Source of the DNA: an uncultured Candidatus Peribacteria bacterium
GTDB taxonomy: Bacteria > Patescibacteriota > Gracilibacteria > Peribacterales > Peribacteraceae
Assembly: GCA_964640945.1 (NCBI GenBank)
Contig: CAZXIV010000003.1
Span: 28,083 to 92,082 of the forward strand
Length of the DNA stretch: 64,000 bases
Direction of reading: 5' to 3'
In this document: positions 41,095 to 44,000 of the stretch, piece after piece
How the letters are laid out: each line of letters opens with the position of its first letter
Position numbering within the stretch: the stretch's first letter is position 1
Notes under the pieces: model-generated
Told to the model about the DNA's origin: nothing
Databases searched by the model: none
What the model saw: only the letters and a program-made list of their open reading frames with translations
Translations under genes and position numbers: made by a program

Positions 41095-44000
41095 ATGCCC
41101 TCGTTCGACCCCGTCGACCCCCGGCAATCCTTCCCCGCTCTCGAACGCGGCATCCTCCAGTATTGGAGGGAAGAGAGCGTCTTCAAGCGCAGTTTGGAGG
41201 AACGTGAGGGCGCCGAGCGCTTCAGCTTTTACGACGGCCCGCCCTTTGCGACAGGACTCCCCCACTACGGCCACCTGCTCGCCGGCACCATCAAGGACGT
41301 GGTACCCCGCTACCAGACCATGCGCGGCAAGTATGTGGAGCGTCGCTTCGGCTGGGACTGCCACGGCCTGCCCATCGAGAACATCATCGAGAAGGAGAAT
41401 GATATTGGCGGCAAACCCGAGATTGAGAAGATGGGCGTCGCGGCCTTTAACCAGCTCTGCCGCAACGCCGTGCAGCGCTACGTGCACGAGTGGCGCGCCA
41501 CCGTTGAGCGCAGCGGCCGCTGGGTGGATATGGACTGGGACTACCGCACCATGGATGCCGAGTATATGGAGGGCCTGTGGTGGGTGCTCGCTCAACTCTC
41601 GGCCAAGGGCCTGCTCTATGAGGGCTACAAGCCCATGCACGTCTGCCCCCGCTGCGTCACGCCGCTCAGCAACTTTGAAGTCACCGACGGCTATAAGGAT
41701 GTGACGGATATCAGCGCGACGGTGATGCTCGAACTCACCGATGAGCCCGGCACGTACATGCTCGCCTGGACAACCACGCCGTGGACGCTGCCCGGCAATC
41801 TGCTCCTGGCCGTGGGTAAAGATATTCCGTACGTGCGCGTACATGTAGAGAACAAGACGTATATCGTCGCCGAAGCGCGCGTTGAGACGGTGTTTAAAGA
41901 CATCGAGCACACCATTGAGGGCAAAGCCTTTAAGGGCAAGACGCTCGTGGGCAAAACCTATACACCGCTCTTCCCCTACTACGCCGAGACGTACCCCACG
42001 GCCTTCCGCATCGCGGCGGGCGAGTTTGTATCCGTCGAGGACGGTACCGGCATTGTGCACATCGCCCCGGGCTTTGGTGAGGACGACTTCGCGCTCGGCA
42101 ACGCCGAGACACTCGAGCCGCTGCTCCAGCATGTGAGCATGGCGGGTCATTTCAAAAAAGAGGTGACGGACTTCGCCGGTCTGGAAGTGAAGCCAAAGGC
42201 CGACCCGACCGCGACCGATAAACTGATTGTCAAACACCTGAAGGAGAAGGGGCTGCTCTTCAAATCGGCCAGCTATCCCCACAGCTACCCGCACTGTTGG
42301 CGCTGCGACAGTCCGCTGCTCAATTACGCCACCAGCTCGTGGTTCGTCGCCGTCGAAAAAATCAAGGAGACAATGCTCGCGGCCAACGCCCAGACCGAAT
42401 GGGTGCCCGCCCATCTGCGCGACGGCCGCTTTGGAAAATGGCTGGAGAATGCACGTGACTGGGCCATCTCCCGCAACCGTTACTGGGGCACGCCGCTGCC
42501 CATCTGGCGCTCGCCCGCCACGGGCGCAACCGAGGTTATTGAGAACCGGACGCACCTGATGGCCAAGCAGCCGATCCGCTTCACCAAAGTGTCGGCGGTG
42601 CGCCACGGCGAAAGTGAGGGCAACCTCCACGGCCTCTACCAAGGCGCCGTGCCCGGTACGCCGCTCACCTCGGCCGGCAAAGACATGGCTAAAGAAGGCG
42701 CTGCCTTTCTGAAAGACCAAGCGGTCTCTGTTATTTACTGCTCGCCGCTCCAGCGCTGCCTCGAGACGGCCGAAATCATCAAGCAGGCCACCGGCGCCGA
42801 GATTATTGTTGATGAACGCCTGCGCGAGGTGGACTGCGGTCCGCACGAGGGCAAGACCTCCAACGCGCTCAAAGAGCTCGACGGCCGCAAGGCTCAGGTC
42901 CTCCGCCAATCACAGGAGGAAACCCCCGAACCGCGTCACCACCTGCCGGGCATGGAGCCGCTGGCCCAGATCCAAGAGCGCATCTCATCCTTTTTGGATG
43001 ATGTGCTCCCGCGCCACCGCGGCGAACACGTCGCCGTCGTGACGCACGCCGACCCCATCCTGTGCGTGCGCCATCACTTCTCCAAAGAAGCACACCGCAA
43101 ACTGGTGGCTCAGCCCAAGCCCGCCTTTGCCGCCCCCGAAACATTTTTCTGGGACCACGTCACCGCTGCCCAGCTGGACCTGCATAAAGAAGTGGTCGAC
43201 CACCTGGTCTGGCCCGGCCCGGCCGACGAGACGACCGTAGAACTGACGCTCGTGCGCCACGGCGAGACCGACTATAACCTAAAGGGCATCGTCCAAGGCC
43301 AAGCCGACCGCACGCTCAACGACAAGGGGCGGGAGCAGGCCAACGCCGTGGCTGCCAAACTCAAGCAGGGCCACTACGACGTGGTCCTGTCGTCGGATCT
43401 TGGCCGCGCGGTGGAGACGGCGCAGATTATCGCCAAAACCCTCAACCTACCGCTCAGTGAACAGAACCCCATGTTCCGCGAACGGATGATGGGCGACTGG
43501 CAGGAACGGTCGAAGCAGGAATTTCTCGACAAGCACCCCACCAACCCCTGCCTCACCACACACACCCCCGAGAACGGCGAGAGCCTCTCTGAATTCCTTG
43601 CCCGCGCGCAGCAGGCGTACGCCTATATCCTCAAGACATACCCGGGCAAGCGCGTGTTGCTCTGTAGCCACGGCGGCTTCATGAACATGTTCCGCGCCTT
43701 TATGGAAAGGCGAAGTCACCGCGAACTTTCGGCCGTACGCATCGAGAATTTAGCGCTCCTCGAGTACCAGCTGACGCCCCTCATGCGCCGCACCACCGAG
43801 GTGCTCGACTGCTGGTTTGAGAGCGGCTCAATGCCCTACGCGCAGGCGGGCTACCCTCACCGCTTCCGCTCGGGCACCAAGAAGGACGAGCCCGTGGGCT
43901 TCCCGGCCGACTTTGTGGCCGAAAACCTCGACCAGACGCGCGGCTGGTTCTACACGCTCACCGTCCTCTCGACGGCGCTCTTTGGCACTTCGGCTTTCGA

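Follow-up and report, generated by a model that had tools for sequence, protein, structure and literature searches.

The ileS locus and its product

The DNA examined here, a stretch of 64,000 nucleotides (nt) hereafter called the window, comes from an uncultured Candidatus Peribacteria bacterium (assembly GCA_964640945.1, contig CAZXIV010000003.1, positions 28,083 to 92,082), and within it lies ileS, the gene for a type-2 (eukaryote-like) isoleucyl-tRNA synthetase (IleRS) with two nested His_Phos_1 histidine-phosphatase domains. The gene occupies 41095..45372 on the + strand and forms a single open reading frame (ORF) of 1425 amino acids (aa) with neither an internal stop nor a frameshift, just as a first-pass annotation, made from the sequence alone, had described it. 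In its product, Pfam matches tRNA-synt_1 and His_Phos_1 in two stretches each (the latter at E 2.3e-83), as well as Anticodon_1 and DUF5915; the synthetase, anticodon-binding and phosphatase profiles with which that annotation had proposed to check its domain boundaries are thus all matched. The ileS equivalog model of NCBIfam (TIGR00392) scores 827 bits against a cutoff of 621.4, its match likewise being split into two stretches by the inserts.

The class I active-site signature HIGH is present as HYGH (aa 57-60; 41263..41274, +), invariant in 120 of 120 homologues, and the KMSKS-type loop is present as KMSKK (aa 984-988; 44044..44058, +), of which K, M, S and K are invariant in the same 120; in an AlphaFold2 model, described below, this loop has a low per-residue confidence (pLDDT), as expected of a mobile loop. 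In the CP1 editing domain, W225, T226, T227, W230, G317, G319 and V321 are invariant across 111 sequences and H322 is kept in at least 90% of them; we take WTTTPW and GTG.VH..P to be the editing motifs here. Foldseek matches the IleRS editing-domain structures 1WK8 and 1UE0 at a template-based TM-score (TMt) of 0.87-0.90. Toward the C-terminus, the anticodon-binding domain (Anticodon_1 by Pfam, aa 1070-1224; 44302..44766, +) is followed by a DUF5915 domain (aa 1247-1384; 44833..45246, +; 85 bits by Pfam), which was also found in the related type-2 IleRS homologues compared.

Judged by PDB similarity, Foldseek and the presence of DUF5915, the ileS product is of the type-2, eukaryote-like kind: type-2 and eukaryotic PDB entries are matched at E values of 1e-47 to 1e-64 vs ~1e-19 for type-1 entries (1FFY, 8C9E and that of H. 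pylori), and the Foldseek ranking likewise places type-2 and eukaryotic IleRS ahead of type-1. The best matches in sequence and fold are the enzymes of yeast (7D5C/8WND), Candida (6LDK), Priestia megaterium (IleRS2, 8C8U) and T. thermophilus (1ILE). With type-2 IleRS the window protein has in common HIGH, KMSKS, CP1 editing domain, CP2-CP3 linker, CP3 DLHK motif, anticodon domain and DUF5915; it differs from the solved type-2 structures in a CP3 that is larger by ~400 residues, these being the two enzymatic domains. An acquired mupirocin-resistance IleRS was considered and rejected, with the models for MupA (NF000257) and MupB (NF000258) scoring 674 and 628 bits, respectively, vs a cutoff of 1900.

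Sequencing runs SRR13443991, SRR13444019 and SRR13444064, each assembled separately, all gave this 1425-aa protein next to the same genes. Because three runs yield an identical protein, a chimeric assembly is excluded without recourse to read mapping, which settles a concern that had accompanied the original description. The idea that a misassembly, frameshift or gene-calling error fused separate phosphatase genes to ileS is vanishingly improbable; apart from the independent recovery of the identical ORF, the architecture recurs in hundreds of homologues, on contigs of up to 1.25 Mb and including the complete genome of Ca. Peribacter riflensis, the inserts have clean boundaries, and base composition does not vary along ileS. 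A recent mobile insertion likewise finds no support, with GC content and skews uniform over the gene and the inserts fixed across a class-level clade.

Two insertions within CP3

The CP3 subdomain of known IleRS enzymes comprises ~60-70 residues (PMC7955072, PMC7191050), i.e., residues 459-526 in yeast (PMC7955072) and 473-534 in Candida (PMC7191050), and its topology differs between the Candida, T. thermophilus (there with a Zn motif) and S. aureus enzymes (PMC7191050). In the window protein it is reached through the CP2-CP3 linker and strand, ARDWAISRNRYWGTPLPIW (aa 454-471; 42454..42507, +), which was delimited by alignment, conservation and comparison with PMC7955072 and which includes RNRYWGTPLPIW at aa 460-471. 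This linker is equivalent to yeast IleRS 453-ARDWNVSRNRYWG-465, which lines part of the reveromycin/tRNA 3'-end pocket (PMC7955072). The first native piece of CP3, RSPATGATEVIENRTHLMAKQP (aa 472-493; 42508..42573, +), is recognisable by alignment to canonical IleRS as a hairpin and helix (strands at 470-472 and 479-481 and a helix at 485-491 in the AlphaFold2 model) and precedes the first insertion point, site A, occupied by the phosphatase domain D1. Between the two inserts lies a native element, QLDLHKEVVDHLVWPGPADET (aa 692-712; 43168..43230, +), that is present in insert-free canonical IleRS; it bears the type-2 motif D695-L-H697-K..D702 (DLHK being aa 695-698), in which D695, H697 and D702 are invariant across 111 sequences. 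Beyond the second domain, D2, which occupies site B, alignment and conservation place the return to the IleRS body at PLMRRTTEVLDCWFESGSMPYAQ (aa 896-917; 43780..43845, +), where CP3 ends and the second Rossmann half begins, with WFESGSMP at aa 907-914.

Site A is hence located between the first hairpin/helix of CP3 and the DLHK motif, and site B just past DLHK..VD, at the position of a short knuckle in canonical enzymes; according to these alignments, both are inside CP3, a surface appendage of the Rossmann fold. When aa 430-492, 693-712 and 895-1010 were joined into an insert-deleted query and searched against PDB sequences, the resulting segment was colinear, without significant gaps, with the human (9W01), Candida (6LDK), yeast (7D5C/8WND) and T. 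thermophilus (1ILE) enzymes. The first-pass annotation had proposed two separate insertions flanking a native segment, and this is what the gap-free alignment to eukaryote-type IleRS, restored by deletion, indicates; that D1 and D2 are 25% identical (49 bits) and that each site is singly occupied in other lineages backs the proposal further. Its estimate of about 1020 aa for the protein without the modules agrees with the 1019 aa that remain once both inserts are masked.

Catalytic sets and fold of the two phosphatase domains

D1 extends over aa ~494-691 (42574..43167, +; Pfam match with a hidden Markov model envelope of 489-698) and D2 over aa ~713-895 (43231..43779, +; best Pfam stretch 717-892). 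For the whole protein, PF00300 scores 279 bits in two stretches vs a gathering cutoff of 21.7, and each domain alone matches His_Phos-family NCBIfam models at E values of 1e-24 to 1e-30. In a conservation alignment of 120 homologues (52-77% overall identity), the D1 catalytic set of R503, H504 (the nucleophile, nt 42604-42606), N510, R554, E578 and H651 is retained in all 120 sequences; of the D2 set, R721, H722 (the nucleophile, nt 43258-43260), N728, R771 and E796 are retained in all 120 and H859 in 119. Together with the Pfam E value of 2.3e-83, this conservation makes a chance match wholly implausible. The motifs quoted in the first-pass annotation had been correctly placed, with R503/H504 starting at nt 42601/42604 and R721/H722 at nt 43255/43258, and with H651 in VVTHADP and H859 in CSHGGF as the second histidines. 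Over the rest of each domain, mean identity to the window is 50% for D1 and 43% for D2; because both catalytic sixes are kept in 119-120 of the 120 sequences while the remainder has diverged to this extent, selection on catalysis is indicated.

An AlphaFold2 model of aa 1-1065, built from 111 sequences, has a mean pLDDT of 89.2 and a predicted TM-score (pTM) of 0.87. Both inserts and their connectors are confidently folded (pLDDT 90-98; D2, 94-98), the weak parts being the D1 cap at aa ~590-610 and the KMSKS loop; a model of this kind had been proposed at the outset as a means of placing the inserts. Foldseek aligns the body to type-2 and eukaryotic IleRS (TMt 0.57-0.71) and the inserts to PhoE (1H2E, 0.80), GpgP (6S2Q, 0.77) and cofactor-dependent phosphoglycerate mutases (dPGMs; 0.66-0.71), and among the solved structures it searched, none combines an IleRS body with a His_Phos fold. 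The net charge of D1 and of D2 is near zero, without a basic nucleic-acid-binding signature.

We regard it as all but certain that the architecture is real and that both domains are, as predicted from their residues, catalytically competent. Since both modules retain all catalytic residues, a bifunctional synthetase-phosphatase is the natural reading; the first-pass annotation had suggested as much, and while the architecture and the intact catalytic sets in both modules uphold it, the activity itself stands as a prediction; the nucleotide, phospho-sugar or alarmone substrates that it named are guesses, and a regulatory role is likewise conjectural.

Position within the histidine phosphatases

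By sequence, the closest solved relatives of D1 are the phosphoserine phosphatase PspA (4IJ5) and PhoE, and those of D2 are PhoE, CobC, TIGAR and GpgP; the closest-relative structures (PspA 4IJ5, PhoE 1EBB/1H2E, CobC 6NRU and GpgP 4PZ9) represent broad-specificity or small-molecule phosphatases. PhoE of G. stearothermophilus, PspA, CobC (also 6E4B) and GpgP resemble D1 and D2 in size (~180-210 aa), catalytic residues and fold, but these are free-standing proteins whereas D1 and D2 are nested within another enzyme.

Curated subfamily models were scored for each domain singly, and all were rejected as assignments. The CobC model (TIGR03162) gives 91.9 bits for D1 and 104.9 for D2 vs a cutoff of 162.9, and its only apparent pass, 186-192 bits for the whole protein, is the sum of the two domains. 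Scores for PspA (NF045917; 87.2 and 69.5 bits vs 350) and SixA (TIGR00249; 29.5 and 30.7 bits vs 74.5) are likewise below the cutoffs. For dPGM, TIGR01258 reaches 38.6 bits with D1 and 53.2 with D2 vs a cutoff of 81.7, with the matches confined to positions 2-117 and 2-105, respectively, of a 245-position model, and the NF0107xx dPGM equivalogs give 30-46 bits vs cutoffs of 305-421; dPGMs in the PDB align to D1 and D2 over the N-terminal ~100 residues only. From these profiles, D1 and D2 are best described as branch-1 histidine phosphatases of the short, PhoE-like type, below every curated subfamily cutoff scored, and because they reach none of these cutoffs, a substrate would not be transferable to them by homology.

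GpmA, the protein described by TIGR01258 and the source of an automatic name from the Joint Genome Institute (JGI), has the superfamily and the RHG nucleophile motif in common with the inserts, but its model has 245 positions vs ~180-200 aa for D1 and D2, which match in the N-terminal part only and below the cutoffs. Among the best NCBIfam matches for both domains is the RNase H/acid phosphatase model NF005567 (Rv2228c-type), in which a CobC-like His_Phos domain is also fused to a nucleic-acid-acting enzyme; that fusion is end to end, in contrast to the nested insertion found here, and the scores are 87-89 vs a cutoff of 326. Guest enzymatic domains in IleRS do have a precedent in NF040702 (ileS_w_GNAT), another catalogued IleRS with an extra enzymatic domain. 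The guest there is a GNAT domain and not His_Phos; the window protein scores 259 vs a cutoff of 1999 and has no acetyltransferase domain by Pfam.

Distribution in Patescibacteria IleRS and ValRS

The best 120 database matches to the window protein all have PF00300 together with IleRS domains, measure 1425-1654 aa, and carry the names Candidatus Peribacteraceae, Peregrinibacteria and Peribacter riflensis (the last with a complete 1.25-Mb genome). The double insert is fixed across Peribacteria, and it is part of a wider pattern of His_Phos domains in the IleRS and valyl-tRNA synthetase (ValRS) of many Patescibacteria, which are ultra-small bacteria. Among GTDB species representatives, the segment between WGTPLPIW and EVLDCWFESG occurs in three size classes, i.e., ~45 aa, one insert and two inserts, with the ~45-aa class being the canonical type-2 IleRS of Spirochaetes, Chlamydiae, Victivallales and others. 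Site A alone is occupied in Saccharibacteria (L011, L012), in some Peregrinibacteria (L014, L015) and in one Peribacteria metagenome-assembled genome (MAG; L007), site B alone in L009, L010 and L013 (labelled 'Patescibacteria group' or unclassified), and sites A and B together in Peribacteria. A search with the Saccharibacteria IleRS L012 returned, as its best 120 matches, proteins of 1150-1230 aa that all have PF00300; 117 of these were classed as site A, and the matches are named Kaiserbacteria, Nomurabacteria, Parcubacteria or Paceibacterota.

Two further sites are used in IleRS. Site C lies ~80 aa past KMSKS, at the junction with the anticodon-binding domain, and is found together with site A in P0130 and P0154; site D lies between CWFESG and the DQTRGWF motif, and P0145 combines it with sites B and C; variants with sites C/D have up to three inserts per protein. 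Another IleRS, P0007 (1640 aa), has site A plus two tandem copies at site B. In Gracilibacteria and Peregrinibacteria, ValRS commonly contains from one to four His_Phos inserts (P0127, with four copies, and P0271-P0388); about 70 of 120 ValRS sequences have an insert and 49 of the 120 are without one, as is the Peribacteria ValRS P0389, in which no His_Phos insert was found. The ValRS inserts are mostly right past WWGHRIP, the CP3-equivalent position, others lying between SPQWF and WCISRQ. All copies compared, whatever their site and host, retain the catalytic residues, barring one E-to-D and one N-to-A change. Guest family, host subdomain and catalytic residues are what these other Patescibacteria enzymes have in common with the window protein, which is the A+B Peribacteria form.

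Several side observations concern these same proteins. Single-insert IleRS (L009, L010, L014, L015, P0145) has CxC...CxxC cysteine pairs around the insert, resembling the Zn-bearing CP3 reported for T. thermophilus IleRS, and the double-insert IleRS of Peribacteria, including that of the window, has lost all of these CP3 cysteines. The stop-to-stop IleRS frame of L014 (5239..8457, Peregrinibacteria MAG) is only 1073 aa long, with His_Phos at aa 313-531, and the N-terminal part of this gene appears to be interrupted; a frameshift or an assembly error could account for this, as possibly could a different genetic code. Numerous proteins of ~405-430 aa consist of two tandem His_Phos_1 domains and are free-standing (P0131-P0153, P0188), and one of 771 aa has three; evidently, these domains duplicate in tandem outside synthetases too.

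Origin and relationships of the inserts

Profiles for four insert groups (Peribacteria A, Peribacteria B, Parcubacteria A and ValRS) were scored against one another, giving 54-119 bits between groups, 73-135 bits vs free-standing proteins and 210-349 bits within a group. Because the groups are mutually as distant as each is from free-standing proteins, the acquisitions would have to be ancient or to have taken place independently; the window's own D1 and D2 resemble free-standing proteins at least as closely as they do the inserts of Parcubacteria or of ValRS. The site-A inserts of Parcubacteria and Peribacteria occupy the same position with a weak sequence signal between them (88 vs 73 bits), and may go back to a single filling of site A in an early Patescibacteria IleRS. 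An origin of D1 and D2 by recent tandem duplication was rejected, given their low identity and the fact that their profiles score each other no better than they score free-standing proteins. Intragenic duplications are clear in other proteins: the two site-B copies of P0007 (B1/B2) are 47% identical, and ValRS copies are each other's best matches. A neighbour-joining tree of ~60 domain copies had low support and a distance warning, and was treated as a lead only, with pairwise and profile scores used instead.

In a tree of the host synthetases (inserts masked, 200 bootstraps), the A+B Peribacteria group together with the A-only L007 at 100% support. Within this clade, L007 probably branches among the A+B sequences (61%), which suggests a secondary loss of its site B insert. 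The Parcubacteria site-A clade has 100% support, and the canonical clade from outside the Candidate Phyla Radiation has 98.5%.

Possible roles of the nested phosphatases

Our preferred interpretation, to which we give slightly less than an even chance, is that D1 and D2 are autonomous small-molecule phosphatases merely housed in the synthetase. In such a model, tRNA-Ile would be charged as usual by a fully functional, editing-competent IleRS, with CP3 split twice, by D1 ahead of and D2 behind DLHK..VD. Each insert would independently hydrolyse a phosphomonoester via a phospho-histidine (at His504 and His722, respectively), and the polypeptide would have two extra active sites beyond the synthetic and editing sites, with neither D1 nor D2 constituting a chemical step of aminoacylation. 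Nesting within an essential, constitutively made synthetase would tie the amount of phosphatase to translation capacity in a genome with few regulators. Since the inserts use several loops (A-D in IleRS; 1 and 2 in ValRS) in one to four copies, a precise geometry relative to the synthetic site would not seem to be required; it is this variety of loops and copy numbers, together with the lack of a basic surface signal and the metabolite phosphatases as nearest relatives, that leads us to favour autonomy. A search for a further His_Phos gene near ileS, covering the window and the flanks (~6 kb) of 12 related loci, found none.

Certain observations sit uneasily with autonomous function. Only two sister synthetases, IleRS and ValRS, ever serve as hosts, and the position is mostly the CP3-equivalent one beside the linker of the tRNA 3'-end pocket. 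All four insert groups, as distant from one another as from free-standing proteins, are in these two enzymes; this host restriction exceeds what would be expected of an unrelated, hitch-hiking enzyme and hints at functional coupling. The pTM and the confident connectors of the predicted model also suggest a fixed orientation rather than loose tethering.

Coupling to aminoacylation, which we consider rather unlikely, would have the phosphatases act on the synthetase's own substrates or products, e.g., by removing a terminal 3'/2' phosphate or pyrophosphate from a damaged or toxin-modified tRNA-Ile held on the enzyme, by dephosphorylating the synthetase itself at the KMSKS-loop serine, or by hydrolysing a nucleotide by-product near the active site. 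The location of both inserts in CP3, directly past the CP2-CP3 linker of the tRNA CCA/reveromycin pocket, the use of the same position by ValRS, the repeated pairing of His_Phos with just these two paralogous synthetases across mutually distant insert groups, the retention of catalytic residues in essentially all copies and the rigid arrangement suggested by the high pTM are all in its favour. His_Phos_1 includes protein and phosphohistidine phosphatases (PGAM5, Sts-1, SixA), and toxins are known that add a phosphate to class I synthetases or a pyrophosphate to the CCA end of tRNA. However, the use of sites C and D, and of up to three copies in tandem, would be surprising if geometry mattered, neither domain is positively charged overall, and their closest solved relatives are small-molecule phosphatases; to our knowledge, no His_Phos enzyme acts on RNA 3' ends. 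The insert-free ValRS of Peribacteria (P0389) and the 49 of 120 ValRS sequences lacking an insert also imply that any such function is not general. A bolder form of coupling, which we hold to be doubtful, is that the inserts give class Ia synthetases an active site of a third kind, as a repair or counter-defence module beside the tRNA 3'-end pocket that episymbiotic Patescibacteria would have acquired repeatedly; it may strip a terminal phosphate or pyrophosphate from damaged or toxin-modified tRNA-Ile (tRNA-Val in the case of ValRS), or a phosphate on the synthetase, and so restore chargeability.

Less probable again is a metabolite sensor, in which the domains would bind a phosphorylated metabolite, perhaps turning it over slowly, and thereby tune IleRS allosterically, so that energy or carbon status would bear on branched-chain amino acid charging. 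IleRS and ValRS are indeed both branched-chain amino acid synthetases, CP3 adjoins the active-site linker, and a rigid connection to the catalytic body is predicted; nevertheless, the full catalytic machinery is kept, including the proton-donor Glu and the second His, where a pure binding module would be expected to relax, and several diverged copies per protein would be superfluous for sensing. We think it very improbable that the inserts are a true cofactor-dependent phosphoglycerate mutase by which the fusion supplies the glycolytic PGAM step. The JGI name of some homologues ('isoleucyl-tRNA synthetase/bisphosphoglycerate-dependent phosphoglycerate mutase'), the common superfamily and the Foldseek matches to dPGMs would suggest it, but TIGR01258 falls short of its cutoff with both domains while covering only the first ~105-117 of 245 positions, every dPGM equivalog is far below its cutoff, and the domains are shorter than a model of that length, with PDB dPGMs matching in the N-terminal part alone. 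The residues from the second His onward, H-A-D-P in D1 and H-G-G-F in D2, also differ from the H-G-N of mutases. A purely structural role, with the domains dimerising or bulking up the synthetase and enzymatic function being irrelevant, strikes us as equally far-fetched: dimers are frequent among His_Phos_1 proteins, CP3 is a permissive appendage whose structure varies, and the Zn-knuckle cysteines of single-insert CP3 are gone in the double-insert proteins, yet six catalytic residues per domain would hardly be kept in 119-120 of 120 sequences, against 43-50% identity elsewhere, were catalysis of no consequence.

Novelty, naming and significance

Aminoacyl-tRNA synthetases are among the best-studied enzymes, and their lineage-specific additions usually serve tRNA binding, editing or regulation. 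Against this background, large parts of one bacterial radiation have phosphatases, catalytically intact by their residues, nested in the catalytic body of these two synthetases, IleRS and ValRS, where as many as four sites are used and as many as four copies occur. Were these coupled to charging, they would represent a new synthetase-embedded activity; if they are autonomous, they would be a clear case of reduced genomes packing housekeeping enzymes into essential genes.

A literature search that took in the genome paper on Peribacteria (PMC4736985), AARS Online and three IleRS structure papers, with most subscription journals outside its reach, found no published synthetase with a histidine-phosphatase insert. 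The first-pass annotation, which knew of no such IleRS, had considered that the architecture might turn out to be common and annotated in its lineage, and this is partly so: it is fixed in Peribacteria (all of the best 120 matches), related forms are widespread in Patescibacteria, and some JGI labels reflect it. Overall, it is real, lineage-fixed and apparently undescribed.

The inserts seem to disturb automatic naming. Many of the IleRS and ValRS proteins are listed by NCBI as 'class I tRNA ligase family protein' or 'hypothetical protein', and some are named by JGI '.../bisphosphoglycerate-dependent phosphoglycerate mutase' or '.../phosphohistidine phosphatase SixA'. The mutase label is automatic, and we do not adopt it, as its mutase part fails the profile cutoffs. 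Calls of IleRS, ValRS and PGAM in metabolic, completeness and marker surveys of Patescibacteria may consequently be wrong.

Neighbouring genes in the window

Immediately downstream of ileS, with a start codon that overlaps the ileS stop (ATGA), is a gene for a 117-aa membrane protein with four transmembrane segments (PF04020, 'Phage_holin_4_2'; 45369..45722, +). A PF04020 homologue is also immediately downstream of ileS in L001 (9064-9465), L004 (9040-9441), L009 (8485-8856) and L014 (8555-8965). The two genes are a conserved pair, seen at several Peribacteria loci as well as in site-B-only and site-A-only lineages, and this pairing is not necessarily part of the function of the inserts.

Roughly 3 kb upstream of ileS, a 924-aa long RelA/SpoT homologue (HD_4, RelA_SpoT, TGS) is encoded at 35298..38072 (+), and the same neighbourhood is found on an independent contig (L081). 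Farther upstream, and ahead of uvrA (30310..33198), lies a pair of large, uncharacterised ORFs, the first of 1696 aa (21498..26588, +) without any Pfam match whatever and the second, directly past it, of 1193 aa (26596..30177, +), with a weak match to Helicase_C as its only one. On the other side of ileS, GC content falls to 0.36 at ~46400..46700 vs ~0.62 elsewhere; this intergenic stretch is flanked by a divergent gene for a TrmB-family regulator (45726..46487, -) and a solute-binding protein gene (46601..47515, +), and is probably their shared promoter region.

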